Source: Psammoneis japonica (taxonomy: Eukaryota). From it: a stretch of DNA of 20,000 nt. Numbering within the stretch: position 1 is the stretch's first letter; each line of letters opens with the position of its first letter. Location of the stretch: assembly GCA_008632985.1 (NCBI GenBank), contig QPGO01000014.1, forward strand, positions 548,871 through 568,870, read 5' to 3'. Shown here in pieces: positions 1 through 19,954 of this stretch. The notes under the pieces are model-generated. The model made no database searches. It worked only from the letters and a program-made list of their open reading frames with translations, and was not told the origin of the DNA. Position numbers and translations under genes: made by a program.

Positions 1-1584
1 GCGTTCTGTGCAATTCTGCTTCATCACGGAGGAAATCACCATGGGTGCTTCGTGATTGTCAACAATGGCATTCATGAGATCCGTACCGGCAATGGTAATG
101 ACACCATCACTGCCAGCATTGGCCATGGCTGCAGTATAAAGAGTGGTAGGAATGGGGGATTGTGTCAGTGATTGTCTTTCCAAATTCAAAAAAACATTGC
201 GCAATTTCATATTCAATACAGTATTAGTCTCACCTTCTTGAATTCCACCAAACTCGGCAATGGGCACACGAAACTGTTTGCGGATACGCGAATAGGCCCC
301 CACGGCACTTGCGACTCCTCGTGCCGCACCGACGGACCCCGCCGGCAAACTCACACCACGTCCTTCGGCCAAACACTCGACAAACATGTGCCATCCAAAG
401 CCACACCGTTCTTGCCCACCCAAAATGGACGACATGGGGATCCAAACGTCTTCGCCTTCGACGGTTCCATTCATAAAGGCAGCATTGAGCGGGTAGTGAC
501 GAGGACCCATGCGGAGGCCTTCGTGGTTGCGTCTGGAGAAAAAAGCAATGGATGATGAAAAAAGTGAGATATTAAAAAATTGCAAAAATCACAATTCCCA
601 TTCCATTACACTCACTCCAACAATGCCACAGTAAACCCTTCATCACCCTTGCCCTTGAGCAAATTATTGGGATCCGACAGATTCAATCCAATCCCAACCA
701 CTCCCGCCACGGGCGCCAGGGTAATGTATCGTTTCTTAAAGGTCGCTCTCACTCCCAGTTCTCCATTACGCTCTTCCACAACACAATCACTCCCAATCAA
801 GACGTGGCATCACTCCCGAGTGTGGTCCCGTCAAACCAAAGCACGGGATGAGCGTCCCGTCCGCCAAGCGTGGCAAAAAGTACTCCTTTTGATCTGCGTA
901 CCGTATCGCATCAACAATTCGCCCGGTCCCAACGAATTGGGAACCGCCACGGTCGCATTGGCATCAAAGCAATGCGTCGCAAGCTTGGCCAAAATCATAG
1001 ACACGGCTTGGGTGGAAAAGCCCAAACCGCCCCATTCTTTGGAAATTTTGAGTCCAAAGAAGCGTTCGTCACGCATGTAATCCCACGCCTCCTTGGTAAA
1101 GTCCTTATCGACCGACACTTGATGATCGTTCAATAAACTACAAAGCGTATTGACTTGATTGTCCAAAAAATCCTGTTCTTCTTGGGTAATGGCAGGCTTG
1201 TACGTGTCCAACAACTTTTTCAGAGAAGGGCTTCCTCCGAAAATGTCTCTGTCAAAGCCTGAGAAATAAAAATAAAAACGTGTTGTCAGTACACTAGCAT
1301 GCAATCACAACTACACAAAACATACGTTTTGACAATATATTTTTATACACACCAATCGTTCCACATCCGAGCGCAACTTGTTCGGTTTGAGAAATGGCCG
1401 GCATGACACTCTTGGCCCAACGATAGACTCGTTTGTCAACGCCATGGACCAAACCCAAGAGGGTTCGTGTCTGTTGGACTTGATGATGATTGGAGAGAGC
1501 AGTAGTAGCAGTCCATGGTGCAGCAGTGGAGACTGTCGCTAGTGAGCGAGGAGCACTCCGAGTGGCGCTCTTGGAAAGCATCAT
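1..1584 (-). CDS. fadE: FadE-type acyl-CoA dehydrogenase with probable mitochondrial transit peptide; 5' part only. Exons 1584-1353, 1258-616, 532-234, 128-<1; three apparent 1-nt deletions in exon 2
   Basis: The spliced translation gives MPAISQTEQVALGCGTIGFDRDIFGGSP...FFGLKISKEWGGLGFS...[47 protein letters not shown]...KRYITLAPVAGVVG...RHYPLNAAFMNG...GWHMFVECLAEGRGVSLPA...YSRIRKQFRVPIAEFGGIQE...SSVMKQNCTER, all hallmark FadE-clade motifs. The N-terminus MMLSKSATRSAPRSLATVST is S/T/R-rich with no acidic residues. Confidence 0.92.
129..233 (-). other. Intron 3 of the acyl-CoA dehydrogenase gene (105 nt)
   Basis: GTGAGA...TACTGCAG; removal joins GGIQE-A-MANAGSDG in frame. Confidence 0.85.
533..615 (-). 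other. Intron 2 of the acyl-CoA dehydrogenase gene (83 nt)
   Basis: GTGAGT...TTTTTCTCCAG; removal joins VALL-E-RNHEGLRMG in frame. Confidence 0.88.
1259..1352 (-). other. Intron 1 of the acyl-CoA dehydrogenase gene (94 nt)
   Basis: GTGTGT...TTTATTTCTCAG on the minus strand; removal joins TI-G-FDRDIF in frame. Confidence 0.85.
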
Positions 1585-1949: not shown

Positions 1950-4043
1950 TCTAACTGTTGATCATGCTTTGAACATGCTGAGGGTGACAGGAGATTATGT
2001 GTGTCATGCAGGGAAAACAACAGTGTTGCAAGAAGTGCGCACACAACTCCAAGGAGACCACAGCCAGCTTCTCCCTTTGTCACAATGATCATTGTGTGGC
2101 GCTGCTCGATGGCAGCAGCAGGCACCTCTCAAAGAATGACTTGGCACCTTGTCTCTGTGCAGTTCTTCTTTGTCCAATCCTTCCAAGATGCTCCACAGTC
2201 CATCATCTGGTGTGAGTGACACCAAAGCATGACCCCTCCCAACAAGCAGTGCCTTGACACAGCACCCCTGTGTTCTTTGGCGCGGCACTGCTCTCTGGAT
2301 CCAAGCAACTCTTGAGGTCAGAGAGCCCAAGTTGACTCATGTGTCTGTGTCTTCTCAAGCTCTCCAGTTCTTCCCATGCAACTCTCTGAGAGTGTGCGAT
2401 GCTCTGGCTGGCTCTTCTGTCAGCAACTGCTTTGGTGGTGACAGCTGCAAAAAAGCAGGCATGGAGAGAGCTGGGGAGAGTGCTTGCATTGTGTGCCTGT
2501 GTCTCCTGCCACAACAGGCATGTGTGCACTTGTTCAGCTGTGAAAAAAAGGCAGAAATTGTGGAAAGAGCTTGCTGTTGTCCTCCAAGAGCTTTTCAAAA
2601 CAAAAAAAAATGGCACAAACAAAACAAGGCAGTCCATTGTGGCCGCTTGCCAGCACAAAACAAAAATCCGAGCTGAGCTGGCCTCGCCAACTCCAACAAG
2701 TCAAAGCATGCAAAGCTGCAAGCTGAGCAAAAAAGTGCCCAAAAAAAAGAAAAGGAAGGTGCGATGATGCATGGCCAAGGGTGTTCCATCAGCCACAAAA
2801 AGGCCAACAAGCTCATTTGGAAGCTGACTGCAATTGGCAAAAATGAAAGCCAATGCAAAGTTTCCAAGGGGAGGGGCATGTTGAACACAACTGGCTCTTC
2901 TGTCAGCAACTGCTTTGGTGGTGGCAGCTGCAAAAAAGCAGGTGCAGAGAGAGCCAGGGTGAGTGCTTGTGTCTTGTGCATGTGTCTCCTGCCACAACAG
3001 GCAGGTGTGCACTTGCTCAGCTGCAAAAAAAGGGTGGCAAATGTGGAAAGGGCTTGCTGCTGTCCTCCAAGAGCTCTTCAAAAAACAAAAAATGTCACAA
3101 ACAAAACAAGGCAGTCCATTGCAGCTGCTGGCCAGCACAAAACAATGACCTGGGCTGAGCTGGCCTCACCAACTCCAACAAGTCAAAGTGTGCAAAGCTG
3201 CAAGCTGAGTGAAGAAGTGCGCCCAAAAAGAAGAAAAGGGAGGTGCGATGCATGGCCAGGGGTGTTCTGTCAGCCACAAAAAGGCCAACAAGCTCATTTG
3301 GACTGACTGCAATGGCCAAAAATAAAAACAAAGACAAAGTTGCCAAGGGGAGGGGCGTGTTGAACACAACACACTGTGCCAAATGAAAAGTGACACATCA
3401 AAAACAGAAGGCAGAAGCTCGTCCTGCATCTGGCGCCATTTTGAAAAGCTGCAGTTGCTTGTGCCTCACAGCACACACCTTTTCTGGACAAACAGTCTGC
3501 CCCTAAAGTGCCAAGACTAAGGGCACATGGCAGGAGTGGCAGCCAAGTTGTGTGCAAAGGATGAGAGGTGTGAGCAACATGGAGATGTTCAAAACTCGCA
3601 GCTTCTTTTTTTAATTTTTTGTTGATGTCAGTCAAACGCTTCTCAGCCACTTGCTGGCAGGTGCAAGAGAGGAGTTGGGAGGCATTGCAGGCCGACAAAG
3701 AGGTCTCAGTTGCTGCAGAGATGTGGAGCATTCCTTGCCCAGTGCACTGAACGTTTCAGTGTGAGTGTTGAGCAGATCAGACAGCCAAGGTTTGAGGGAT
3801 CAGCTGCACAATCATCTGGCAACAGCAACTGGCTGTCTGGTGATGAGACACTGTCAAACAAAACATCATTTCTGAAATGACACGTTGTTTCTGTGACAAG
3901 CAGAAGTTGTCTCCTCCGGTCGTTTCGGTTTGAGTTGGAAACTGTTCGTTCATTGACATTTTGGATTGTGTGAGAGCCTGTGAGGTGAAGTGCGAGCGCC
4001 GCTGAATCCTGCTTTGGCAGTTTCGGTTTTGCCCGCGCGAAAG
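1950..4043. other. TpA- and CpG-depleted degenerate domain 1 (probable decayed repeat or transposon-derived DNA, family unidentified)
   Basis: No TA dinucleotide between 1998 and 3322 and only four more up to 4043. Few CG, abundant TG/CA. Contains an internal tandem duplication and only short Tyr-free ORFs. Confidence 0.8.
2408..3369 (+). repeat. Diverged tandem direct duplication: ~483-bp unit (2408-2890) and ~479-bp unit (2891-3369)
   Basis: Both units begin CTGGCTCTTCTGTCAGCAACTGCTTTGGTGGTG and end GGGGAGGGGC(A/G)TGTTGAACACAA. They are collinear throughout, with many TG<->CA differences. Confidence 0.95.
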
Positions 4044-4292
4044 TATCTGAACAAAAACAGTCCATAGAAATTCTGTTCCCCAGTGCGCACGGGGTCTTTG
4101 CCATTAGAATTACTGTATCAGGTAGAAAACGAAGTAGAGTCTGTCCAGCGTTCTCCAAAATATCCATGCGCACTGATTGATAGACCTTCTTCTTAGTTCA
4201 CGTAATGTTCTTTGGACAGAACATGTTCAAAGCTTCCCGCACCCTATGATAGAGTGATTTGTCCACAAAAAGATGTCAACCGCGACGTGACA

Positions 4293-5551
4293 ATGGTGAT
4301 GTTCCCCAAAGCTCAGTTGCAACTTGTTGTTGCTTCTGCTTTTAGGTTCCTCACTTCTCAAGCATTGAGGCCCCTGCGATTGGATTCGCCGCTTAACCAA
4401 GAGTACTTTGTGTTCAGCCATAATGCAGCTACGGGCTATCTTGCAAACAAGCAAGGAATTGAAGGTATTAGGCTTGGCTTTTTCAAGAATCAAATAGGCA
4501 ACTTCACGGAGCAGCTCGGTTGTGGTGCTCGAGCTTTCGACCTTCGTCCTGCTGAAATCGACGGTGACATCTTTTTTCGGCACGGGGGCGTGCTGGTGCC
4601 TGAGATATCCTTCCAGAACGGAATCCAAGAAATTTTGGATTGGTCCGCATCGGATACATCTGAATTGATTTTGCTCAAGATCTCCAAGTGTCGGGACGGC
4701 GAAAACTGTGATGCCATTTCGACGATTCTTGCGAACTTGGGAATCGAATACATTACGGACTGCAGCGAGTTTGGAACTCTCACTGTTGGAGAGGCACTAA
4801 ACAAGAGTCAGGTTCTGGCTATTGAAGGTTCTTGTTTCATTCAGAACTTTAATGACACCCTGGAATGCCATGGGTTCTTGCCCGACGATAACGATCCTGC
4901 AAATGTAGCTGCAGTACGAGATTGCGTCCCAGATCTGGAATCTGAGATTAGCCTAGAACAGTTCGCGGGCATTTTCCTGTGTCTACAGGTGGCTCTCACG
5001 CTCGATAAGGTCAACCTTTTTGATTGCTGGAGTAGTAGCAGCTCGAAAGATTTTCCTGTAACCCAGCTTTTCAACCATCTCAAGGAAGTTGTGCTGCGGG
5101 ACCACCACAAGATGGTTTGCCTTGGCAGTGGCAAGCTCTTTGGCAAGGTGGGGAAGATACCGTCGTGCTTTCCACGTTTCGCCCTCTCCCGTTACCCCTT
5201 GTCCCTGACCTTACAAGTCTAGAGATTTCAAGCCTTCTCAAGAATAATGAGGAATCTCAAATCAACCGTCTGGTTTTGGAGTTGGTTACGGACTTGGTAA
5301 AGAACAATACTATTCTAAATTTGGTAGAGGTGGACTTTGTATGTGAGACGTATGGTCGCCAGCTGTTGTCGGCGGTGAGACCAGATGATGCGGCTGTGGG
5401 AACGCCCATGCCTACGTCAATGGCGTCACCGCCAACGACGACACCGCCAACGACTCCGACGCCCACTCCTTCTAGCGGAACCAAGGCGGGACCGCTCATG
5501 TTTGTATCTCTTTTTGTTATTCTTGTTTCGGAGATTGTCCAGCTTGTTTAG
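4293..5551 (+). CDS. Secreted PI-PLC X-domain (PLC-like phosphodiesterase) protein with Pro/Thr linker and hydrophobic C-terminal tail; one apparent 1-nt deletion near 5095
   Basis: Signal-like N-terminus MVMFPKAQLQLVVASAF. Motifs SHNAATGY, NQ..FTEQLGCGARAFDLRP and FFRHG supply the two catalytic His positions. Coding continues in the 5117-5551 frame (WQWQALWQ...LNLVEVDFVC...PTPTP...LMFVSLFVILVSEIVQLV). Confidence 0.78.
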
Positions 5552-6001
5552 ATGAGCTGCGAAATGTTGCTCGCTTGTGGTGACCTGGACATACGCGAGT
5601 GTTGGGGACAGTTCAGATTTGTGAATGGTACAATTTAAATCGAGGGATTAAGGTATTGCTGTTTGTTTTAATACCGGTAGTAACCACGTGCTATGTGTTA
5701 TACCTAATAATATAGTACCGTTCATTTTGTTGTACCGGTAGATCTCGTCCTTGAATCTTGGTCCACAAGCACTGCCATGGTTTCAACATCTTCAAAGCGC
5801 GGCAGAAAAGAATGCAATCCATGATTTCGACACCTTCGTGTACTACAGCTCACTACTTGACACTGTCGTGAATACCACTTTAGCTCACATTGCATCCATA
5901 GTCTTGGTAATGCCAAATTGGCTAGAGGAAACTGGAAATCATCTGTGAAAGGACATAATGTGTCACGTGTAAATCTTCTTTTTCTTTCTATTTGTCTTTA
6001 T

Positions 6002-6928
6002 TTACAATTTAGCATCACTGCTATTCTCTTTTGATTGTCGAAAGCCTTCCAACATATTGATAATGTACACAAGCCGCTCTTTTGTCGATCGATTCGAGAG
6101 CCACGTCAGTCTCGAAAAGGAATCATTGTGCGCCAAAACGAAACGAAGTGCCCAAAACGAGTACTGCTCCACATCAATGGGAGGCAAGCCCGCGTACAAC
6201 AAGTTGTGACGAGTCTTTACAAAGTTCTCCAGCAAATCTAGACTATACGATCTCAAGGCCAATACCTCTGTCATGGAAGCGTCATCGCTATTTGATTCGT
6301 CATCATCGTGCACCATCACGTAATCCGTCGCACGGGTCAAAGGCGGAGCGTCCGCTACATCATTAATGGGCACTTGTTCTTGCTTCAAAACACGCACTCG
6401 CGGGCCAGCAAGGCACTGCACCAGTATATTGCCTCCGGCTGGCAATTCTGTGTGCTCCATAATCCGTACAAGAATACAAAGGTCACTCTCTACATTTTCC
6501 GATGCGGGTGACATGCGAGCTCTCAAAATGTACAGGCCGTTTCGTTCGATTGTGGCTTCCTTGGCCAACAGTTTGTATCGTGGTTCAAAAAAGTTAAAAT
6601 CCAACACTTCACCCACGAGAGCAGTAGAATTAAAGTCAAAAATGGGTAGCACGGGAGGCAATTTTTGCTGTGGATCCCATACGGTCGAGAGTTCGTTGCA
6701 GCATCGAAGGGCCTCAAAGATATCGACCTGTTCTCTTTTTTCACTGCCACCTTTGAAAGTATTTCTCAGCAACTCACAAACTTGTTTTTTGTTGGATGGC
6801 AGAGGCACATCACTTGGTAGTACAGCTGCAGCGTATTTTCCAAACACTTGCGGATACCGACCGCCACCAGAAGCTCGCAACATGGCTCGATACACGGTTC
6901 GAATTAGACGAGGATTGGATAATGACAT
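6002..6928 (-). CDS. LON peptidase substrate-binding (N-terminal) domain protein with LYR-like N-terminal helix; no ATPase or protease domain
   Basis: Intact ~308-aa ORF from ATG 6928. LPIFDFNSTALVGEVLDFNFFEPRYKLL, CLAGPRVRV and YSFWAL...WLSNRSTKERL match the LON_substr_bdg pattern. The N-terminus contains IRTVYRAMLR. Confidence 0.78.
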   Translation of the reverse strand: MSLSNPRLIRTVYRAMLRASGGGRYPQVFGKYAAAVLPSDVPLPSNKKQVCELLRNTFKGGSEKREQVDIFEALRCCNELSTVWDPQQKLPPVLPIFDFNSTALVGEVLDFNFFEPRYKLLAKEATIERNGLYILRARMSPASENVESDLCILVRIMEHTELPAGGNILVQCLAGPRVRVLKQEQVPINDVADAPPLTRATDYVMVHDDDESNSDDASMTEVLALRSYSLDLLENFVKTRHNLLYAGLPPIDVEQYSFWALRFVLAHNDSFSRLTWLSNRSTKERLVYIINMLEGFRQSKENSSDAKL

Positions 6929-9393
6929 GGTCGTAAGTTGAAGATGCAAAACAAAATCAATCTATTAAGCCACAAGGTCAACCGGTGGTCCATTGTGAAG
7001 GTAAGTACGGGGATCATGAGGAAGGAAGGCGGCGGTAAAGCACCATGGTCTGTTGATGATCCTGATCTTACTCTGATGATGAGTCAGCGCGTCATGCGTT
7101 TTAGTTTCGTGTGCTAATTCAGTCTTGCATCGGTTGATTTGATGTGCTGATTGAACGCGGAGGGGAAAATGGCAAACCCAAAACGTGGGACGTACCACAT
7201 GACCTCGGCGTTTGAAGATTCATTGTAATTGTGGTTGTGCTTTGTGTTGTTTAGGCGTGTAGGATACCTGTAAGACTCGACAAGGTCGTGGATGACTTGG
7301 AGGGGATCATGAAGGATGCAAGGGAGATTGAAGACGAGAAAACAACGGTCTGCCCAGTCGTCGCAAACAACGTGGAAGTCTACAAGATTGTTGGTGATGA
7401 ACATTCAGCAGTTCGATCGTGCAATGAAGCGTGCCGCAAAAAAGAAAAGGGACTCGACTGGGAAGCTCTTGCTGCTGCTGCAGTCATGGCACTGGAGGCA
7501 GAAGTTGGGCACATCACCAGCGTGGTCAAAAACTTTGCAATCTTGCAGCAGCAGCAGCTCCTTTTCTTGCCTGCTCTCAATTGACCATTGTGCAGTCTGT
7601 GTGTCATTCACCCATGAATTTTTTCTCTGTCACAGCCACCATTGGAGAGAGATTGTGTGGTGGACTGCAGCAATCCAACAGCATTTTCTCATCACATTTC
7701 CCTGATGCACAACTGAGCGTGCATCATTTTGCTCTGATCCATTTAAAAACCCACAACAGGTGTCCTTGCCTTTTCCTCCCAAGTCCCAGACAGTTTTTGC
7801 TGCAGCCAGGCAACAACCTCCTCACCCCAGTTTGATGACATTTTTGGGAACATTTGTGGGAGACACCTCCATCAAGAGCATCCTGCCATTCTGCAGTTAA
7901 ATGCAGGCATGGCAGGTCTGCCCACAACAGCATTTTGTCAGCTGTCAGTCTGGCACTGATTTTGTCACATTGAGCAACCCAGTGCAACACCCAGTGCTTC
8001 TCTTCACAATTGGGGCTGGTGGGTCATTCTCAGCAGCAATGGGACATGGGCAACATGAGGGCATTGGTCGCCAGAAGCTCAGAAAGTGGTGGAGAGAAAA
8101 CAAGCTCATTGTCAGCTCACAACCAGATGACCCCCAATTCCAAGGATCCATTTTCAGCCTTTTAACTCTCAAAAAAAGCTGATGGGGACAGCACGTGAAT
8201 TCTCAGAAAATGACACAGAAACACAGAGGGCCACCTCTCTGCTGCACCTGGGTGTTTGCACATGTCTCCATCACCAGGTTTTCTGTGAAGCCAGAATGCA
8301 AACATTCAAGAATGCCAGCATGCCAAGAGACATTTCCTTGCAACACATGTTGCAGCTGTCAGCACCACATGGGAAATGAGTGAGTGAACACCCTTTGCTT
8401 GCACAGGAGTTGAGATGATGTCAGATGAGAAACAGAGTGTCGATGAGGGCATGTGGTTTTTTGCTTCAGATCTCTCATTGGTTCATTTGCAGAAAAGTCT
8501 TTTTGGGCAAGTGAAGAATGCACAAGGCACAGAGCAACACCTGGTGCAACCCAAACAAAAACATGAATTGAGTGAGAGCAGGGTCATCATTTCTTGTGCC
8601 CACAGGAACTTTGTTGCTTTCTCATTTCTGAGCAGGGACTCTTGCATGAGTGAACTTGCCATCACACAGGGGCACAGTGCAAGCAGTCAAGTGCTTGTTG
8701 TCAAGTCCCTTGAGGGTGTGCTCATTGGCCTTTTGGTGAGCTGCACACTCATCTCCATGGCCTCCAAGTTTTAACCCCACCTGTCATGTCCATCAAATGA
8801 TCACCAAACATGTTTGGGAAATCTGTTGCAGCACCCCCATCCAGAGCACCCAGCCACTCAACCACAGCCAGATCTGTGGCAGCAAGATCTCCACTTGAGC
8901 TGCCCTCCAGAGCTTTAAGATCACATCTTCTGGTGCTGCCCAAACATCCTTCCAAAAGTCATGTGTGCCAGATTCAGGCAAGATTGTAACAGCATTGGTG
9001 CAATTTTTGGCAACTCCAAGCAACTGACTGATGCACTTCTTTTTGTGTGAGAAATGAAGTGGTGTGCCATTTGGCACCAATCAATCAGTGAGAGCACCAA
9101 GATGTCAGGTGTGTTGAGCCAGAAATCTCTTCCTCTGGGACTTCATCATTTGTCCTCTGGTTGTTTCACATGTGCCGTCAGATGCAAGAAACATTGAGGC
9201 ACCCTGCAGTCATGAACAACAGCTGTCACTGTGTCCAGATGTGGCCCCCTTTCTTGTGCAAGGAAGAAAGCTCATTGCAGCCATGACCATTTGCAAAGAC
9301 ACTCCCAGGTTGTCACTGTAAATCAATTTAACCTTTGCAAAAAACATTTGGTTGGAGAGCAGAGCCTGCAGTTTGTTGCAAGAAATTGTGTTG

Positions 9394-9467
9394 ACCACAG
9401 AGCTTTCTTCTGTGCTTTTCTTTCAGATGGACCACAGAGCTTTCTTCTGTGCTTTTCTTTCAGATGG
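9394..9467 (+). repeat. Perfect 37-bp tandem duplication
   Basis: ACCACAGAGCTTTCTTCTGTGCTTTTCTTTCAGATGG occurs at 9394-9430 and 9431-9467. Confidence 0.97.
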
Positions 9468-10544
9468 CATGTGTGCCCCATCCCAGGTTGTGACCTCAAG
9501 AGTGTTCTTGGCAGTGGCAAGACCACTGCTCCACTTTTTCACCAACATCTTGGGAGAAGCAGTCAATGTGTGCATCATGAGGTCAACATGGCAATCCCAG
9601 TGAGCTTCAGTGTCACAGCCATTGCATGACCCATCTCAACTCTCAGAATCATTGCAAGAGAAAGCACATGTCTGGGCTGCCACAAACAGCAATGAGCACT
9701 TCTGTTGTCAGCTCATTCCACAACAACATTCTCTTCATGGTGAGCAGTTTGGAGCAAGTGAGCTGAATCACTGCACTTGCTTCTTGCACTCATCAATGCC
9801 ACAAATGTTTCAGCCAAAGCATCAGCTGCTCTCTTTGGCATGCACTCTTGGTGCACATGACATTTCCTCCTTTTGGACAGAAGCATCAGAGAGAGACTCT
9901 GACTTCAGTGGTGACATCAGCTCCAGATGTGGCAGTTTTTCCAGATCTGCCTGAGCAGGTTTTTGCAATTCAAAGACCAACACTGCTCCTTCTTGTTGCA
10001 ATGGGATCTTGACCTTGTTCTGGGTCCACCAACATGGCAGCAGCCATGCAAATGGGAATGTTCCTCAACAGTTTGTGCTCTTTGCAGCATGGACTTGCAA
10101 CAACAGTGCCATCAGGACTCAAAAACATTGTGGGTGCAAGTCCAAACTGCTCTTGCAATTGTGCGCCCTCAGCACTTTGGGCTGATTGGATTGAGTGATG
10201 ACTGTCTTTGAGGAAATGTCTGGTGCCTGCAGGTTTGGATGAGTCCTTCCTAAAATGACCTTTGTGCTGGTGCAATCATTCATAAAAAGAAACTAACATG
10301 AAAGTTTGGATGAACACAAAGGCACAGAAAATTGGATGTCATCAAAACATGTGAGTTTCTTTTGAACAAAGGAAGCAGATCTTAACTTTGCAAGGATTCC
10401 AAAACACAAGTGGTGGAGAGATTGATGGAGGAACATCAAAGGTGGCAGCTCTCATGTGGCAACTGACACTTGTTGGCATGCATCAGAAAAGAAGAGACAG
10501 CGCAGAGGATTGGCCACCTGCTGAGCCAAACAACAAGCAACACA

Positions 10545-11785
10545 TGCAGTTGTTTGTCACACCTTTCTTGAAGTGAGTGCCTCTCAGATGGACAGCAATT
10601 CCTGCATTGCTTTTTGACCACATTCAACAAGTGTTTGTCCTGCAGCTCTGTTTCTTGCACAATGTTTGTGTTGCGGCCAGGAAAAAAGACACCATGTCCG
10701 GCCGACTGCAATGACGAAACCAAACTTCCTCAAATGGGTCTGCCTTGTGAACAGTTCCCAGTGCCTCCCTCACCCAGTGAATGCTGCAGCAGCTGTTAAC
10801 CTGAAACCTGAGGAGGACAGACCAAAGACTTGCACCACACATTTTTGAATGTCACCTTGCTTCACCAGGTGTGCTCAAGCCCCATCGGTTGTTTTGTTGC
10901 ATTGCTGGGTTTGTTCCCAAAGCAGCTGTCTCCCCTTTGATGGATGTTGGATCCTGAATGTCCAGGCAGCCCCACAGACTGTTGCTGCAGTTTTTTTTTG
11001 CAGTTCCTAAACTTGTCCATGTCATTGCAGGTGACCCAGTCCACATCACCTGGGGCCCCAGTTTGATGAAAAATGTTGACTTGAGCTGCAGTCTGAACAC
11101 AAATGTTCCTTGCACGCGTTCACATTGAAGGGCACATGCACAATGTGATTGACGTCAAGCCATGGGGGACTGGACAGATCAGGATCCTTGCTGCAAATGT
11201 GGAAATGGTCAAACCCCTTGAATTTGAGCACATGATGACATGTGATCCACTTGGCGGGGCCGGAGCAATGTCAAAATTCTGCGTGAGCATCACCGTGACA
11301 AGTTTTGCTTCTGGAGAGGGCTGTTTGAGAGGCTGGTGGAGTTCAAAATCTACATTGTCCCTCATGCTGCAGGTGTGATTGTAGACTGCAGTGTTGGAAA
11401 CCACTGGGTCAGGTCCCTGGGAACATCAAAAAGAAATTCCCGATCCATCTTTGCAACCTCACGCAACAATCTGAGAGCCACTCTGCCATTGCAGGCCGTG
11501 CAGCACCCTTGGACCACTTGGGGATCTCCTTCTCTTGGCACACATTCTTTTTTTTGCAAGAGTGAAATGTGCCATCCAACAGTGGGAATGTTGGTTGGCG
11601 ACATTCTTGTCTGTGCAGGGAGGGGGTGTCAAGACAATTGTGGCAAAAAGAGGGACTTCTTGTTTGATCAATCTTTCATTGTGAGCAAGAATCTTTTTGT
11701 TGGCTTCTGCATGGCATGTTTTGAGGAGAGATTTGTCATGAAGATTGGCTGCATTGCTTGTGGTTGCGGGAGTGGCAGTGGTGCT
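10545..11785 (-). pseudogene. Decayed GT92/DUF23-like (GT-A fold) glycosyltransferase, copy 1
   Basis: The minus strand reads AKWITCHHVLKFKGFDHFHIC (family pattern EWI.YH...GFDHFYIY) and VDWVTCNDMDKF (pattern WV..xDxDEF). Multiple frameshifts and stops. Confidence 0.75.
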
Positions 11786-11819
11786 GGCACTGGCAGGTTG
11801 TGGCTGGGGTTTTGTGGGT

Positions 11820-12440
11820 GTGATCATGTCACATCTGAGCCTGACAAAATCCTCCTCACACAATTTGTTGATGCTTTCCAGGGTGTGGGAGTCAAAATCT
11901 TTGGAGTCAGCTTCTGAAAGGATGGGGGCAAATGCAATGGCAGGCCAAAGTTGAAACCATGTTGTTGCATGAGTGTTGGAACTCCACAGTGAGATTCTCA
12001 CATTTCAACAAGTGCACGATGGTGGCTTTGTTGTCCTCATCAAAGGCACACAGACATTGAGGCAACAAGTGCCCACCTCCAATGCCATTGCAGTTTGCGG
12101 CATGCTCAATTTCTTTTTTGTCCATCTGTTGAGCTCATCTGCACCGTGCTCAGGTTCATGTTTTCTGAACCATTTGCAGCAGAACTCTGAGAGAACTTGA
12201 TCACAGAGGTTTCAAACAACAGCAGACAGGTCTGTGCCTGGCACCTCACAGAGGTTGTTGTTGGGCTTGTTCTCTGTGAGCCAATGAGGTGGCGTGTGCC
12301 AAGCAGGTCCTCCACAACTGACCTCCCGGTTTTGGAAGGGAACCGTCATGGGCTTGGCAGGGGTGCAGTCCTTCCCCAGGCAGTGCCTTTTGTCATGGCC
12401 TCCCCCTTTGCTCAAATGGTGGCAAAATCCTCACTGGACT
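11820..12440 (-). pseudogene. Decayed sulfotransferase family 2 domain, copy 1 (core plus C-terminus; lacks the N-terminal PSB loop)
   Basis: PAWHTPP; GTDLSAVV*NLCDQVLSEFCCKWF (from LFAVVRNPYDRVLSEFYY); GGHLLPQ; HLLKCENL; KDFDSHTLESINKLCEEDFVRLRCDMI (from IN.LY.EDF..LGYDM). Confidence 0.78.
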
Positions 12441-13963
12441 TGTGGATGAAGTGCGCTTTCGAAGCACAAAAAAGAGCTCCGCATCAAACACCATTGTCGA
12501 CCATGTGTGCGAATTCCTGGGCAAGCGGGTGGCAGATTTGAGACCAGTTCTTGGATTGCTTCTTTTCCCTTTCTGTCACTTGCTTCCTGACCGCCTCCTC
12601 GTAACACTGCTTCAACACATCAAATTCATTTGGAAGCAACACATCATGCAACGTCTTTGCTTCAAAAACTGCTGTCATCTGAGCTTGGACAGGGTCATTT
12701 CCTGTCCATTTCGTGCAACAGGCTTCATCGGGCCTTCCTGTCATTGGACAGCGGTCCCGTTCTTCAGAATCCGCATGGCAGGGTAGACACGGGTCCAACA
12801 TCACAAAATGGCTCAAACACAAACGCATTGAGGAAGCTTTGCTCCACGGTTTCATTCGTCAGCAACGTCTTGCTGACGACGGTTGTTGCATGCAATGGTG
12901 CAGTCTTCTACAGTGGAAGCCTGGTTGTTTCGAACTTCTCTTTGAAAAGATTCGTGAAATCTCCCACTTTTCAATGGCAGGCAGACAGCATCGCTTGCTT
13001 CTTTGTTCATTGAACTTGCTTCGTTTGCTTGTTGTTGCACTGCCAGCATTGCCATTGGTGGCAAGATGGTCGATGATGCCATTCTTTCTTGATCATGACA
13101 TCGGAATGCTCTAAAATGTTGCTCAAAAACTTCATCGTATTTCCAACAAATTTCTCGGGCTAGTTCCAGTCTGTTCTTGCCTTTTTCTCCTCTGGTGTCA
13201 GAGAGCATTCTTTGTGTTTGACGTTGAACCAGGTCGTAAAAATGTTCCCCTGTGAAAGAACCAGTTCCTCAACTTTATTCACCATCGGCTCTGCAACATC
13301 TTCAGAGGTGCACCTCAACATCGTTCGCCATCATCTTCATTGTCACATGCCTGGTGTTCAACGGCTCCAATGTTCATGGTCCGGGAAAACACTGCAATTG
13401 TGCGTGAAACGTGCCAGGACACGAATCAAAATCTTTGGGAGTCAGCTTGTCAAAGGGTGGGGGCAAATGCAATGGCAGGCCAGTGTTCAAGCCACATTGT
13501 TGCATGAGCATCGGCAACTTCATTGTGAGATTCTTGCATTTCAACAAGTGTGTGATGGTGGCTTTGTGGTCTTCATCAAAAAGTGTGTGGCCATTGGGGC
13601 AACAAGTGTCCATCTCCAATGCCGCTGCCATTTTGCAGCATGCTCATTTTTTGGTCCATCTGTTGCACTGCTCATCTGCACCATGTTCAGGTCCATGTTT
13701 TCAAACCATTTGCAGTGGAACTCTGAGAAAGTTTCAAATGACTGCAAACAGGTCTTTGCCTTGTGCCTTGCAGGAGTTGTTTTTGGGATCATTTTCCAAG
13801 AGCCAATGGGGCACCAGCACATGCCAAGCAGGTTTTCTAAAACTGACCTCCCAGTTTTGGAAGGAAACCATCATGGCTTGGTGGGGGTGCAGTCTTTCCC
13901 CAGGTAGCACATTCATCATGGCCTCCCCCACCACTCAAACAGTGGCAAAACCCTCACAGGACT
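11892..13963 (+). repeat. Dispersed direct repeat pair B: ~11892-12440 and ~13426-13963 (~0.55 kb each)
   Basis: Shared start TCAAAATCTTTGG(G)AGTCAGCTT...GGGGGCAAATGCAATGGCAGGCCA, collinear to GTGGCAAAA.CCTCAC.GGACT. Confidence 0.93.
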
Positions 13964-14230
13964 CCCGCTTGATTGGAGGCAGCAACTTGTGTTGCTGTGC
14001 CACCTGTCTTTGTAGTGTGAGCCACCAGTTCAAGCTGTGGTTTGTTGCTTTCTTGTCAGTGGGTGGACAGTGTGTTTCACTGGTCCTTCAACACTGCATC
14101 TCCTTGATTGGCTTGAATTTTTCTCATTGTGAACGAAAAGCAATCATCCAATTGAGAAAGGAGAAGACCAAACAAGTTCCATTGAGCTCACCAGTTAGAT
14201 TTGTTTTGGTCAGGACTTGTCGCCGGATGA
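13426..14230 (-). pseudogene. Decayed sulfotransferase family 2 domain, copy 2 (N-terminus plus core; truncated after KDFDS)
   Basis: QLELVAHTTKTGGTATQVAA..AGVL*GFCH contains the 5'-phosphosulfate-binding loop (KTGGT at 13996-14010). Then PAWHV, GKDLFAVI*N, SEFHCKWF, HLLKCKNL and KLTPKDFDS. A possible signal-anchor remnant CLVFSFLNWMIAF lies near 14135-14175. Confidence 0.78.
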
Positions 14231-14270
14231 CCAATGCCAAGCCAACACTTTGCCCATCACATTTCACATT

Positions 14271-15760
14271 TGCAGTTGTTTGTTGCGCCTTTCTTGAAGT
14301 GAGTGCCTTTCAGATGGACAGCAATTCCTGCATTGCTTTCTTGACCACATTCAAATTTGTCCCGTAGCTCCGTTTCCTTCACAACGTTCTTGTTGTGGCT
14401 GGGAAAAAAGGCACCCGTGTCCAGCCATCTGCATGACAAAACCAAACTTCCTCAAATGGGTCTGCCTTGTGAACAGTTCCTGTGCCTCTCTCACCCAGTG
14501 AATGTTGCAGCAGTCAAGCTGAGAAGGACGGACCAAAGACTTGCATTGCACATTTCTGAACGTCGCCTCGCTTCACCAGGTGCACTCGAGCACCATCAGT
14601 TCTTTCGTCACATTGCCAGGTTTGTTCCCAAAGCCAACTGTCTCCCCTTGTGGCAGAAATGTTGGATCCTGAATGTCCAGGCAGTCCCGCAGACTGTTGC
14701 TGTGGATTCCGCACGGTTCTACAAACTCATCCATGTCGTTGCAGGCAACCCAGTCCACCATGCCCATGGCCCCAGTCCGATGCAAAATGTGACTTGAGCA
14801 GTGGTCTGAACACAAAACATTCCTTGCACTGTGTTCACATTGAAGGGAATGCAAGTGATGCAATTGACATCAGGCAATGGGGGACTCATTAGATTGGGAT
14901 CCTGATGTAAATGTAGAAATGGTCAACCCCCATGAAATGAGCACATGATGGCATGCATCCACTCGGCAGCTAGAGCAATGTCAAAATCCCGGACCAGCAC
15001 GGCCGCAACAAGTTTTGCTTCCAGAGAGGGCTGTTTGAGAGGATGGTGGAGTTCGCAATCTACACAATCTTGCATGCTGCAGGTGTGATCGTAGACTGTG
15101 ACATTGGAAACCACTTGGTCAGGTCCCTGGGGACATTGAATGGAAATTCCCAATCCGTCTTTGCAACCTTGCGCAATGACATGAGCTTCCCTGCCATTGC
15201 AGCACCACGCAGCATCCTTGGACCACTTGGGGATTCTTTTTCTGTGCAACCGTTTTTTTCCAAGCAATGTGGGCAAGAGTGAAATGTGCCATCCAGTGGT
15301 GGGAATGGGTGTCGTCTTTGTTCTCGTCCATGTGGGCAGGGAGCGTGAGAACAATTGTCATAAAAAGTGGAACTTTTTGTTTGATGATTCTTTCATTTCA
15401 GCAAGAATCTTTTTGTTGGCTTCCATCAGCATGTGTTGAGGAGAGATTTGCCATGAAGATCGACTGCATTGCTTGTGGTTGCAGGAGTGGCAGCAGCACT
15501 GGATGCCTCCTGCATTGTAGACTCCTCTGCATGTTATGTTCATTTTCTTCCATTTGATTTTCACTGGCAGCTGCAGCAAAGGCAGCAGTGCCACAGGGCC
15601 ATCTTAACTTGTTCCCACGTGGTCAAGACGACTGTGAATGCCCCTTGCTGGCATTGCATGAGAAGACAGCCAACAAGACACAAGCCATCAACGCTTTCTG
15701 GCTGCCACTGACTGCCGACACTGACTCTAGGTCTGACAGCATTGGCATCATAATGTCTTG
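14271..15760 (-). pseudogene. Decayed GT92/DUF23-like glycosyltransferase, copy 2
   Basis: AAEWM...MGVDHFYIY (14907-14933) and VDWVACNDMDEFVEP (~14715-14760). A possible signal-anchor remnant ALMACVLLAVFSC lies near 15655-15695. The 5' boundary is uncertain. Confidence 0.75.
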
Positions 15761-18291
15761 CTGCTCCTCAATGTGATGGTGTCAGCGAGACTAAAGTGGA
15801 TGAAGGTGATGGCATGCACTTGTTTTGTTGAGCATCCCATGATGCCTGCATTGCAAACAAAGGAAAAGTGGGAAAAAGGAGGGACGATCATTTGTGATGA
15901 CGAGTTTTGAATGAACACTCTCTGCCACCACTGTGATGGCATCCGGCAGCATCACATTGTAAAACATCCATCAGACGCAACTGGAGATGTCGGAGAAGAT
16001 CCCACAGCAGTTCCGCCACCTTGAACCTTGAACAACTGAGTCATCTTTGGATGAGTTGCTTGGTGCAGGACTTGGATCTGCATCAAGAAAACCATGCCAA
16101 TCTTGAAAAGGTAATTCAAATGATGGTGCACCAGGAAGCAGCTGCTGATCATTGCTGTTGAAGTGCATGAGGATGTGTTCTGAGTTTGGCTGCCCATGGT
16201 GCAACCATTTTTTTCCTCTGCTGACTGCTGATGACTGATGACCAAAGACTGTGGATGGAATTTGTTCTTGTCCAACGCGATGGTGTGTGGTGCTGTGCAA
16301 ACTGTCAAAGTCATTTGTCAAGGTCATTGCAACATTTCTGCCCCATTGATCATGTGATTGAGATTCAAATCCATTTGTTCTTCTCACAAAATCATTGTGA
16401 GATCTCTCTTCTTCAGTTTCTAGCCACAATTTCTCACAGAGAACTTTCACAACACTGCACTGCAACCTTGAGCTTCTGCTCTTGTCTGCTGCAAAGCTGC
16501 TTTGCTGCTTCTTTGCTCTGTCCAGCAGCTCCTCTGGCTGCAGAGGTGGGGCATCATGATTTGCAGAGCATTGTCAAAAGTTGAACATTGTGTGTTGTGA
16601 ACTTTCAAATGTGCAATGTTTTCTTCAAAGAGATGGGAATGAACTGGGTGGAAGATTGTGGCCTGCAGAAAAGCACCCAAAATGCACGGACCTCATCTGC
16701 AAGCATCAGTTCAAGCAATGTTCAGAGTCCTCTGCTGGGGCAACAACCTGGGAAAAGAATGCAGGTGTGGTCCAAAGCACTGATCTGTCTTGATGCAAGC
16801 AAATGACAGTGGGCACAAAGTGTTTCAAAAACATGAGCCGTGCACAATTTTTGCACCTGCAGTCTGACTCAGGAGTGCTGGGGGCTCTCTTTGCTGAGCA
16901 CATGATCTCCCTCTGTGGTGGTGCTGGAGGCTGAGTGAATGCATGTGTGCACCTGTGCATGCATTAAAGCACAACCACCAAAACTGAAACTTGCTGTGCT
17001 CCCTGCCAAACACTGGACGAGATTGCACAGCAATTTCTTGCTTGAGATCTCCACATTTCGCTGGGCTCACAGGGCTGATGATGTCTCTGTTTCAAAGCAT
17101 GCTCAATGGCTCCTGTGGCCTCTGTGACAGCAAAGCTTTTGGTGCTCTGCTCTTCTAAATTGCAAAACCATTTCCAAAGTTTCTTGTCATTTTTTGTTCT
17201 CATTTTGGCCCGGGATCTGATCTCACTTTTGGTCTTGGCTCGCTCTTTTTGTTCCGTTGAGGAGGATGAGGATGCCGACAGAGGGATGGAAAGAGTCAAA
17301 CATGGGGGTGATGCTGCAACAAGGGCACCACCACCTCCTCAAACAATGAGGAGGAACACATTTGAACATGAAACAGGCTCCATGCACCAGGCAGCTGCAA
17401 TGATCTCCAGCCCCCATGTCAAAGAATGCAAGGCAAAGAAGGTGAGAGCTTCTGCGAGAACCTTGGCCTCAAAAACTTCATCAAAAAGCACCGTCATTCT
17501 AGATCCATGCCAAAATGGACAGATTCTTTCTGAAGTAGAACTAAAAGGTTTGGATGAACAACTGAGCCTCTCGCACTCTCTAGAAGGAATTTCCAATTTC
17601 CCTGGCAAACGGTTGTGGATGCCGATGAGACAGATGATGGTCCAAATTTGCCATGTTTCTACACCTCTACACTTTCCTTCAGATGCTCTGCAAATATTCT
17701 TCCAACATGCCCTACACACAGTAAATAAAATGTGACTGTCATCGTTGTCCCATGAATGCTTCGTGAAAATCAAGATCATTGGAAAGTGCCGAAAATGACG
17801 ATCCAAATTTTTGACGTCGCTGACAAGGATCAGTTACGCACTGAGGCACAGCTGTTGGAAAGTACAGCTTCACCGTCAAGCCTTACATTGAACAACGGTT
17901 GGAGGAACCGAGACGGAAAATTACAACATATCGAGCCGCGTATCGTTGGGCATGCTCACGATACAACAACGATCGTCACGTCTCTGTCTCTTCACGTTTC
18001 TGTTGCTGAACTTTGACAACGGGGTGTGGCACAGTAGCCATAAGTTTAGTTTCGCATGGGCGCCTTGATGTCGCCCTCCGAGCCTTACTGCCTTACTTCA
18101 TATTAGAAACGAAAGCGTATATCAAACAAAGATCCCAGCCTTGATCCTGGAAAGCTCCCTACATTCGACTGTTTTCCATGTTTCATGATGCCTCTTTTTC
18201 GACAAAAGTGAGATCATAACTTCTTTTCTAGGCCAAATGTAAATCGAAAAATCTCTGACGACTATATTCTACCATATCAACATCTTATTAT

Positions 18292-18978
18292 CTAGTGGCC
18301 TTCTTCCTCTTCAGCTTCGATGCCAAGTTGGTGGTCCAATTCCATAAGCAATTGCGGTGCACCCTTGACCTTCGCCAACACAGATCCAACCTTTTCTTCT
18401 GCATCGATTTGTTCCATATGAAATGGATTAAGGAAGGCTTTGCACCCGTACTCCCCGCATCTATCAGCGGCGTCTGCAAGGCGGAGAAGGTTTTGAGTAT
18501 TGGTTTTCTCTGCATGAAGTATATCCTCCCATACCTCTGCCTCGGTGATCCAATCACACTTTGGCGCATCAAGAGCTTTCAACTGGACGGGAAAGTTTCG
18601 TTTCATGGCAAAGTCGAGAATAGCAAGTCCGTGGCCTCGCTCTTCGCCTGATTCTTCCAGCATCCATGCCGCCATTCCTGGAAGTCCGCGATCATGGCAC
18701 CAAATCGAGGCACTCAGGTACAGTTGCGAGGCCGCCAATTCAACAGATACCTGATCACTCCAGAGGTTCACCAACTCTTGCGATGTGCTTCCTGTTGTCA
18801 TTTCCGGAGTGGCTGGGTATGCAGGAGTCACGGTTTTATCGGGAGCGACAGGGCTTGATACTTGAGGGCTTCGGACTGCCGCCCCACCTCCGTTGAGCTG
18901 ACTCAAATATGGAGATTGAAGAGCCGACGCCGGTGCGGCGACAATAGCGGCAAAAAGAGCAGTAGCGGACAACTTCAT
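18292..18978 (-). CDS. FTN: Ferritin, diatom type, with bipartite (signal plus transit) plastid-targeting presequence
   Basis: MKLSATALFAAIVAAPASA|LQSP resembles an ASAFAP-type cleavage site. The mature domain QVSVELAASQLYLSASIW...GMAAWMLEESGEERGHG...DFAMKRN...AEKTNT...FLNPFHMEQIDAEEKVGSVLAKV carries the ferroxidase Glu/His/Gln ligands. Single intact ORF. Confidence 0.95.
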   Translation of the reverse strand: MKLSATALFAAIVAAPASALQSPYLSQLNGGGAAVRSPQVSSPVAPDKTVTPAYPATPEMTTGSTSQELVNLWSDQVSVELAASQLYLSASIWCHDRGLPGMAAWMLEESGEERGHGLAILDFAMKRNFPVQLKALDAPKCDWITEAEVWEDILHAEKTNTQNLLRLADAADRCGEYGCKAFLNPFHMEQIDAEEKVGSVLAKVKGAPQLLMELDHQLGIEAEEEEGH

Positions 18979-19049
18979 CGTCGTTTTTGTTTCATACAAC
19001 TTCTTTACTGTATTACGTATTTTGTTATGCGTTGGTGAAGGCGATCAAT

Positions 19050-19954
19050 NNNNNNNNNNNNNNNNNNNNNNNNNNNNNNNNNNNNNNNNNNNNNNNNNNN
19101 NNNNNNNNNNNNNNNNNNNNNNNNNNNNNNNNNNNNNNNNNNNNNNNNNNNNNNNNNNNNNNNNNNNNNNNNNNNNNNNNNNNNNNNNNNNNNNNNNNNN
19201 NNNNNNNNNNNNNNNNNNNNNNNNNNNNNNNNNNNNNNNNNNNNNNNNNNNNNNNNNNNNNNNNNNNNNNNNNNNNNNNNNNNNNNNNNNNNNNNNNNNN
19301 NNNNNNNNNNNNNNNNNNNNNNNNNNNNNNNNNNNNNNNNNNNNNNNNNNNNNNNNNNNNNNNNNNNNNNNNNNNNNNNNNNNNNNNNNNNNNNNNNNNN
19401 NNNNNNNNNNNNNNNNNNNNNNNNNNNNNNNNNNNNNNNNNNNNNNNNNNNNNNNNNNNNNNNNNNNNNNNNNNNNNNNNNNNNNNNNNNNNNNNNNNNN
19501 NNNNNNNNNNNNNNNNNNNNNNNNNNNNNNNNNNNNNNNNNNNNNNNNNNNNNNNNNNNNNNNNNNNNNNNNNNNNNNNNNNNNNNNNNNNNNNNNNNNN
19601 NNNNNNNNNNNNNNNNNNNNNNNNNNNNNNNNNNNNNNNNNNNNNNNNNNNNNNNNNNNNNNNNNNNNNNNNNNNNNNNNNNNNNNNNNNNNNNNNNNNN
19701 NNNNNNNNNNNNNNNNNNNNNNNNNNNNNNNNNNNNNNNNNNNNNNNNNNNNNNNNNNNNNNNNNNNNNNNNNNNNNNNNNNNNNNNNNNNNNNNNNNNN
19801 NNNNNNNNNNNNNNNNNNNNNNNNNNNNNNNNNNNNNNNNNNNNNNNNNNNNNNNNNNNNNNNNNNNNNNNNNNNNNNNNNNNNNNNNNNNNNNNNNNNN
19901 NNNNNNNNNNNNNNNNNNNNNNNNNNNNNNNNNNNNNNNNNNNNNNNNNNNNNN
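19050..19954. other. Assembly gap (905 N)
   Basis: Run of N. Confidence 1.

Follow-up and report, generated by a model that had tools for sequence, protein, structure and literature searches.

TA-depleted islands in the diatom Psammoneis japonica suggest a TpA-specific transition process acting alongside CpG decay

Two islands nearly free of TA between ordinary genes

We analyzed a stretch of 20,000 nucleotides from the Psammoneis japonica genome (contig QPGO01000014.1, positions 548,871 to 568,870), referred to below as the window, with all coordinates given as positions within it. Two blocks of this DNA have lost nearly all of their TA dinucleotides. The main island (7383-17499; 10,117 bp, GC 0.478) lies between an expressed gene and a ferritin gene, and the second island (1997-4043; 2,047 bp) fills the gap between two expressed genes. 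Both are made up of decayed repeats or pseudogenes, including, in the main island, two relics of a glycosyltransferase of family 92 (GT92), from which the direction of change can be read. Our interpretation, to which we assign a probability of roughly 0.7, is that the islands were hit by regional CpG decay together with a second, TpA-specific transition process.

The main island contains 48 TA dinucleotides, an observed/expected ratio (o/e) of 0.07, whereas 1000 mononucleotide shuffles of the same DNA gave 685 +/- 20 (minimum 624) and the density in the flanks (0.0384 TA per bp) would predict 389. CG is also depleted (134, o/e 0.23), TG (1114, o/e 1.68) and CA (1102, o/e 1.84) are in excess, and AA (1.23), TT (1.20) and AT (0.86) are ordinary. 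The longest runs without TA measure 1220 bp (11382-12602) and 922 bp. In the second island there are 4 TA in all, with a run of 1327 bp that has none. The flanks (4100-7200 and 18000-19000) show TA o/e of 0.59-0.61 and CG o/e of 0.87-0.93 (0.4-0.8 and about 0.7-1.15, respectively, in 500-bp windows). Overall, about 90% of the TA steps have been removed from the islands. A first-pass annotation of this DNA had described a domain of about 10 kb with about 50 TA, TA-free runs of over 1 kb, CG loss, TG/CA excess, and neighbors holding TA and CG freely. Our counts bear out each of these observations, and its coordinates for the main island (7383-17499) stand, but it missed the second island.

The GC content of the main island is unchanged compared to the flanks (0.478 vs 0.46-0.49). 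Pyrimidine-purine (YR) dinucleotides make up 0.237 of the steps in the main island and 0.242 in the flanks, so that the loss of TA and CG is roughly offset by the gain of TG and CA, leaving GC unmoved. Per 500-bp window of the main island, CG depletion is patchy (o/e 0.00-0.68), whereas TA depletion is uniform (0.00-0.21). The borders are sharp. On the left side of the main island there is a TA at 7381 and the next only at 7744; on the right side there is a TA at 17156, and ordinary TA density is found from 17500 onward. At the left borders of both islands the changes in CG and TA coincide within about 100 bp, whereas at the right borders (3883-4043 and 17211-17499) CG density is back 130-300 bp ahead of TA density.

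GT92 pseudogene relics in the main island

The repeat pair A/A' of the main island (10545-11778 with 14271-15493, 79-82% identity) holds two GT92-like pseudogene copies, both on the minus strand. Copy A' (14433-15481) is the better preserved one; it runs through three reading frames with an in-frame TGA, and the proteins P0004, P0006 and P0007 match it by tblastn with E values of 1e-39 to 1e-41. Copy A (10631-11785) is more decayed, lies in one frame with several in-frame TGA, and is matched by residues 56-449 of P0004 (E 2e-25). A phmmer search of 1.84 billion proteins with the read-through of 14222-14884 (minus strand) gave four matches, with P0004 (476 aa) ranking first (E 2e-13, 48% identity). 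P0004-P0007 are themselves genuine members of GT92, with 57-72 bits vs a Pfam cut-off of 23, whereas the relic's own match to Pfam GT92 (PF01697; E 0.0056, 16.8 bits) falls below that gathering cut-off. Based on these matches, repeats A and A' are best described as decayed descendants of glycosyltransferase family 92 and not as working members. A look for further GT92 relatives in metagenome contigs and viral contigs showed patterns, but no relative confirmed by tblastn. The intact homologues carry 12-25 Tyr codons and therefore cannot be TA-free. For these relics, this disposes of the idea, raised in the first-pass annotation, that the source copies were already poor in TA before they decayed.

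Polarized substitutions: direction and TpA specificity

The first-pass annotation had proposed polarized substitution spectra as a check on its claim, and the relics make such a spectrum possible. We set the ancestral state at the protein level, using columns with the same residue in three or more of the four intact GT92 homologues, and read the corresponding residues in both relic copies. None of the 21 conserved Tyr residues is kept. Nine have become Cys (A>G at TpA) and three His (T>C at TpA); the remaining nine positions now read Gly (3), Arg (2), Ser (1), Leu (1), Ile (1) and stop (1). The same transitions in other contexts are rare. A>G is seen in 0/12 His>Arg (CpA), 1/10 Asn>Ser (ApA) and 0/20 Asp>Gly (GpA), and T>C in 0/13 Phe>Leu (TpT), 0/11 Cys>Arg (TpG) and 1/18 Trp>Arg (TpG). 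Pooled, this amounts to 1/42 for A>G in CpA, ApA and GpA, and likewise 1/42 for T>C in TpT and TpG. The 9/21 for Tyr>Cys differ from the pooled A>G controls with a Fisher p of 9.9e-5, and A>G is thus far from equally frequent in all contexts. Other residues were retained much better (Phe 9/13, Trp 10/18, His 6/12, Cys 7/11 and Asp 10/20); for F, H, C, N, D and W together 47/84 are kept, against 0/21 for Tyr (p = 6e-7).

Single homologues give a similar picture. Compared to P0004, 32 Tyr positions show 0 kept, 10 Cys and 3 His; compared to P0007, 33 positions show 2 kept, 10 Cys and 8 His; and compared to P0006, 28 positions show 0 kept, 9 Cys and 5 His. For example, the motif VDYYNIHWV of P0004 reads LDCCNIHWV in the relic. 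In copy A', nine conserved Tyr codons have become TGC (7), CAT (1) and CGG (1). One Tyr column is TGC in both copies. At another, copy A has CAC but copy A' has TGC, which means that the two copies mutated independently after the duplication. The conserved Arg columns (n = 19) contain 3 Gln, 2 Cys and 2 stops, so that 7/19 carry products of CpG decay. On the ancestry reconstructed in this way, these data show the loss to be a directional, TpA-specific transition, TpA>TpG/CpA.

Wider context and strand symmetry

The few TA steps left in the islands are not a random sample with respect to their neighbors. RTAY (a purine before, a pyrimidine after) occurs once in the islands vs 90 times in the flanks, a per-bp ratio of 0.006, while YTAR occurs 26 vs 43 times (0.342) and TA with mixed flanks 25 vs 128 times (0.111); Fisher's test gives p = 2e-9. 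When both strands are considered, the density of TA as a percentage of that in the flanks is 3% before T, 6.5% before C, 17% before G and 23% before A. The most enriched product trinucleotide is TGC (1.97-fold). CG loss shows no such dependence on the flanking bases (0.25-0.29 across classes). Judged by this comparison of islands with flanks, the process prefers 5'-TAY, which becomes RTAY when both strands are targeted. Across the 1-kb windows TG and CA are in balance, with two exceptions that lean in opposite directions (|z| about 2.2-2.5), and this balance argues that the process acts on both strands. The claim of the first-pass annotation that a bounded domain has undergone, besides CpG decay, a second process converting TpA to TpG/CpA on either strand is thus upheld by the Tyr spectrum, for about 2.2 of the 12 kb, and by the TG/CA balance.

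Other contents of the islands

Self-comparison of the window revealed three direct repeat pairs within the islands, while most of the island DNA is single-copy within the window. Besides A/A', they are B (11889-12440) with B' (13423-13963), which are 77-81% identical, and, in the second island, a unit of about 481 bp present twice in tandem (2408-3370, 87-88% identity). A perfect 37-bp tandem duplication (9393-9467, 100% identity) in the main island was the sole tandem array found in the window; because it is still perfect within heavily mutated DNA, it must be younger than most of the decay. CA/TG doublets are the commonest dinucleotide difference between B and B' (19), there are 10 of them between the 481-bp units, and 57 across the three repeat pairs.

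When both islands were scanned against Pfam in six frames, with X in place of stops, no domain of a reverse transcriptase, integrase, transposase or capsid came up. Besides the GT92 match described above, these scans gave one to Ctr only, which was rejected as a chance match. About 10 of the 12.2 kb of island DNA has no recognizable ancestor in the six-frame scans. Pfam searches with 13 long open reading frames (ORFs) of the window matched the flanking genes only, and a tRNA search of the window found none. Since TA-free DNA has almost no TAA or TAG (70 TAA/TAG vs 516 TGA on both strands of the main island), it contains long stop-free frames of 200-319 codons without a Pfam match, such as 13408-14367 (plus strand, 319 codons), 11246-11917 (plus strand) and 15971-16573 (minus strand). 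These long island ORFs are probably spurious.

Neighboring genes and their transcripts

To the left of the second island lies an acyl-CoA dehydrogenase gene (1-1452, minus strand) of ordinary composition. To the right of the main island lies the ferritin gene (18292-18999, minus strand; Pfam PF00210, E 2.5e-21), with ordinary TA and CG. The nearest named relatives of the ferritin are from diatoms, i.e., Amphora coffeaeformis (62%), Nitzschia inconspicua (53%) and Epithemia clementina (50%), next to entries with truncated MMETSP names, with the best unnamed relative at 66%. Proteins with 89-96% identity to the exon at 235-531 of the acyl-CoA dehydrogenase gene come, where a source is named, exclusively from diatoms (Skeletonema, Seminavis robusta, Grammatophora oceanica, Chaetoceros tenuissimus, Epithemia and others); Seminavis belongs to the Bacillariophyta within the Stramenopiles. 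These two genes place the window among diatoms. None of the matches is at 100%, and the proteome of the organism itself is therefore absent from the protein collection searched. The gene at 4212-5222 (4 unnamed matches) and a protein atlas, which gave generic acyl-CoA dehydrogenase clusters, were uninformative on lineage. The ferritin gene is immediately followed by a scaffold gap, 905 N in length (19050-19954), and ORFs called across it are meaningless.

Contigs of two read sets were compared with the window. One set (X1) is a public DNA run with short-read-like contigs of De Bruijn type and a word depth of about 55. The other (X2) is an RNA-like run, whose contigs skip introns; one of them reveals three introns in the acyl-CoA dehydrogenase gene. 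The X2 contigs cover the flanking genes and none of the island bins, which is not evidence that the islands are silent. An 846-nt X2 contig matches 7212-7469 with 17 mismatches and then continues into unlike sequence that contains TA and CG. The divergence sets in at the very point of entry into the TA-free island. The left flank appears to be shared by an expressed paralogue, so that a break in homology falls on the border of the island. In the gene at 4212-5700, a one-base insertion at 5090 is seen in X2 only (depth 1587), and in 0/59 of X1; it could be an allele, an error or a difference at the RNA level.

Fidelity of the sequence

Consensus or basecalling errors at modified bases, writing TA as TG or CA, might in principle mimic the depletion, and the window does hold assembly errors. 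Compared to the X1 and X2 contigs, one base is missing from it at each of 798, 814 and 893, and 15 bases are missing at 5426. These indels break the frame of the acyl-CoA dehydrogenase exon at 616-1257, which has 2 stops in its best frame, and look like residual errors of a long-read assembly. Since the X1 contigs correct the exon indels, X1 appears to be of an independent read type. The X1 contigs cover 30 of 30 bins, including every bin of both islands, and 62 of the 139 aligned pieces are at least 99% alike, yet TA is not restored in the islands. Across these 139 pieces, which include paralogues, X1 differs from the window at 58 G>A and 74 C>T places, and this total of 132 is too few compared to the roughly 340-640 missing TA. 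The Tyr>Cys/His pattern, moreover, is in frame with a real gene family. Reads that unmask an artefact, a possibility raised in the first-pass annotation, were thus not what we found, as the X1 contigs reproduce the TA-free sequence. Basecalling is an unlikely source of the TA loss, and we give a technical origin of any kind only a very slight chance.

Some X1 contigs are about 98% alike to the window and represent alleles or young paralogues. Among the 40 differences listed between X1 contigs and the window, five are adjacent TG<->CA double changes (9065-9066, 9086-9087, 9852-9853, 12217-12218 and 12220-12221). Two more positions, 8556 and 12242, are TA in X1 but CA in the window. These differences point to a turnover of YR steps that continued beyond the separation of those copies.

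Alternative explanations

Both a general AT-to-GC force, such as GC-biased gene conversion, and repair errors of the Pol eta type (WA>WG) give A>G changes, and Pol eta had been put forward in the first-pass annotation as one possible source. Neither accounts for islands whose GC matches the flanks and in which AA, TT and AT are not depleted (AA o/e 1.23), or for the excess of Y>C over N>S (1/10, at ApA) and D>G (0/20), and we consider such forces the most improbable of all the explanations. The islands could instead have been TA-poor from their origin as foreign or mobile elements, or have been held TA-free by selection, with CpG decay as the only mutational process. That about 10 of the 12 kb are without a recognizable ancestor leaves room for this scenario. 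But the GT92 relics had ancestors rich in Tyr, and they show the one-step products Cys and His where Tyr stood; their in-frame stops and frameshifts exclude coding selection; and unrelated sequence classes are equally depleted inside common borders. A TA-poor origin is therefore improbable. We hold the same view of RNA editing, in which ADAR-like A-to-I changes on double-stranded transcripts would return to the genome by reverse transcription. The presence of repeats among the island sequences is in its favor, as is the 5' U preferred by ADAR targets according to the Discussion of the Bigelowiella natans preprint (bioRxiv 10.64898/2026.01.13.699255), which is taken up below; the mutations described in that preprint, however, arose in situ in integrated DNA. 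The contiguous, sharply bordered blocks seen here span unrelated tandem repeats, GT92 pseudogenes and single-copy DNA, and the six-frame scans show no relic of a reverse transcriptase or integrase. TA followed by G survives better and TA followed by T worst, the opposite of the 3' preference generally attributed to ADARs. To our knowledge, ADARs are confined to animals.

A thymine-centered chemistry deserves more weight, although it too is unlikely. Here T would be oxidized by a TET/JBP-like dioxygenase to 5-hydroxymethyluracil (5hmU) or 5-formyluracil mispairing with G, or would be changed by an error-prone repair or glycosylase step at T:A in methylated chromatin. TpA is palindromic, so that T>C and A>G are indistinguishable in the sequence, and the symmetric RTAY bias reads equally well as a purine preceding T. 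Base J and 5hmU are placed on the T of TpA in the telomere repeats of kinetoplastids and in dinoflagellates, and the co-located CpG decay ties the process to modified chromatin. On the other hand, 5hmU opposite A is weakly mutagenic. The sole experimental precedent, that of B. natans, is undecided on the chemistry, and its authors favor adenine deamination in the main text of the preprint.

Several points weigh against our interpretation of a TpA-specific process of the B. natans kind. The polarized portion is limited to the GT92 relics, about 2.2 of 12.2 kb, and the direction of change elsewhere is by analogy. Tyr>His taken alone is not significant (3/21 vs 1/42, p = 0.10). The TG/CA doublets between repeats can be explained by CG ancestors alone and are no proof of TA-derived change after duplication; a two-copy model with CG-only ancestors predicts 144 doublets vs the 57 observed, and the doublets are uninformative on TA. 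The baseline for the RTAY bias is the flanks, which are mostly coding DNA, and part of the TA counted in the islands may have arisen anew instead of having survived. X1 may derive from the same strain as the assembly. Finally, the targets in B. natans are viral and, as far as the main text of the preprint goes, without a CpG effect, while here the six-frame scans found no viral or transposon domain and CpG decay is present, so that the two systems may be non-homologous.

Proposed mechanism

In our best explanation, two processes have acted regionally in the islands. One is CpG decay (CG to TG/CA), for which CG depletion and TG/CA gain in repeats are consistent with deamination of 5-methylcytosine (5mC). 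The other converts TpA to TpG, seen as CpA from the opposite strand, with the target A preferred when a pyrimidine follows on either strand (5'-RTAY). As TG/CA is the end product of TA and CG alike, GC remains static, Tyr codons and TAA/TAG are erased, and TGA is the only stop left. The near-coincidence of the CG-poor and TA-poor borders leads us to infer a targeting of silenced chromatin. An ADAT2/TadA-like deaminase, recruited to silenced and probably methylated chromatin, may convert adenine to hypoxanthine in DNA and would in this way inactivate unwanted DNA. In tRNAs, A34, the natural target of such deaminases, is as far as known always preceded by U33 (5'-UA), and the site that bacterial TadA reads is UAC; both the TA target and the main outcome TAC>TGC (7/9 Tyr codons of copy A') fit with this. 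Of the enzymes suggested in the first-pass annotation, a deaminase of the TadA/ADAT type thus remains the best guess, while Pol eta does not fit with AA that is not depleted. Our confidence is highest that the process is of one kind with the TpA hypermutation of B. natans, lower for chromatin targeting, and lowest for adenine deamination.

Comparison with known systems

Mettrop et al. (bioRxiv 10.64898/2026.01.13.699255) describe how integrated DNA of giant viruses and virophages is hypermutated at TpA in B. natans (Rhizaria). According to the main text, 231 of the 302 nuclear mutations in their mutation-accumulation lines fell in one giant-virus region and one virophage region. Of these, 230 were transitions (A>G or T>C), every one of them at TpA, and the rate was about 6e-7 per site per generation. 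De novo mutation was about 1000-fold over background, and the process was active in some lines only. An ADAT2 homologue was proposed as the enzyme. When the cluster cut-offs given there are applied to our window, 12 of 19 1-kb windows pass, namely 10 consecutive ones (7001-17000) and those starting at 2001 and 3001. The two cases share the loss of TpA with a gain of CpA and TpG on both strands, in bounded regions beside normal genes, and in both the transitions are GC-neutral or GC-raising and oppose the usual AT bias. They differ in the host, a diatom (Stramenopiles) here vs a chlorarachniophyte (Rhizaria), and in extent, with a TpA Rho of 0.07 here vs 0.45 in the B. natans NCLDV (nucleocytoplasmic large DNA virus) region. 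CpG decay is co-located here, whereas the main text of the preprint mentions neither CpG nor any flanking or trinucleotide context comparable to the RTAY/TAY bias. The recognizable target here is a duplicated GT92 pseudogene with no viral or transposon domain found, as opposed to viral insertions there. Thus, compared to what that main text reports, what is new is the diatom host, the near-saturation, the CpG decay in the same place, the RTAY motif and a recognizable target that is not viral.

In the literature we searched, no report of TpA hypermutation in diatoms was found; the B. natans preprint was the only precedent found, and diatoms are not mentioned in its main text. The first-pass annotation knew of no description of the process in diatoms, which agrees with our search, although this kind of process was already reported in 2026 for B. 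natans. In the available text of a mutation-accumulation study of the diatom Phaeodactylum tricornutum (PMC6604790), the contexts named as mutable are CG, CC and TG, a TpA effect does not appear, and cytosine methylation is reported for this diatom.

Like fungal repeat-induced point mutation (RIP), the process would be a regional, context-specific transition hypermutation that destroys coding capacity, and duplicated segments are present here as well. But RIP is C>T, mainly at CpA, and makes TpA and lowers GC, whereas here TpA is destroyed and GC is unchanged; with a TA o/e of 0.07 and no drop in GC, the islands have moved in the opposite direction, and we rejected RIP as a candidate. In basidiomycetes, the RIP context is TpCpG. 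Decay of CpG through 5mC accounts for the depletion of CG (o/e 0.23) and for some of the TG and CA gained, but TpA loss is beyond its reach; also, the TA loss is more uniform than the CG loss, and only the TA loss carries a flanking-base bias. As with restriction in animals by APOBEC3, which acts on retroviral DNA, and by ADAR, which acts on double-stranded RNA, deamination would disable invading nucleic acid. Unlike here, APOBEC changes C and not A, and ADAR acts on RNA; the 5' U that ADAR prefers, as the B. natans preprint states in its Discussion, is a point of likeness, and the 3' pyrimidine preference found here is a point of difference. TadA, ADAT2-ADAT3 and the DNA adenine base editors derived from TadA resemble the process in target, as the natural 5'-UA target step of the tRNA deaminases matches TA. 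We know of no natural ADAT that hypermutates chromosomal DNA regionally.

Implications

The only earlier report of TpA-specific hypermutation of silent DNA that we found is the 2026 preprint on a single rhizarian alga. In the diatom the signature is deeper, carries the legible wider motif RTAY and is linked to islands depleted of CpG, and its occurrence there suggests a wide distribution of the process in a major eukaryotic branch to which the main primary producers of the ocean belong. It also offers a natural enzyme activity that would edit adenine in chromosomal DNA, and a new route by which transposons and pseudogenes may be inactivated. For genome annotation it poses a hazard, in that TA-free DNA yields long false ORFs and recoded Tyr hides protein homology. 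Whether the B. natans process is lineage-specific now becomes a testable question, as protocols for transformation, CRISPR and mutation accumulation exist for diatoms.

A broader proposal, which we put forward tentatively and which is at present rather doubtful, is that diatoms and chlorarachniophytes inherited an ancient, chromatin-targeted DNA adenine-editing defense common to the SAR group (Stramenopiles, Alveolata and Rhizaria), which would rewrite 5'-TA(Y) to TG(Y) on both strands of silenced DNA and which in P. japonica would be coupled to CpG methylation and have run to saturation. If true, TpA hypermutation would be an ancient genome defense of the SAR lineage comparable to fungal RIP, and its enzyme a natural editor of adenine in double-stranded DNA.

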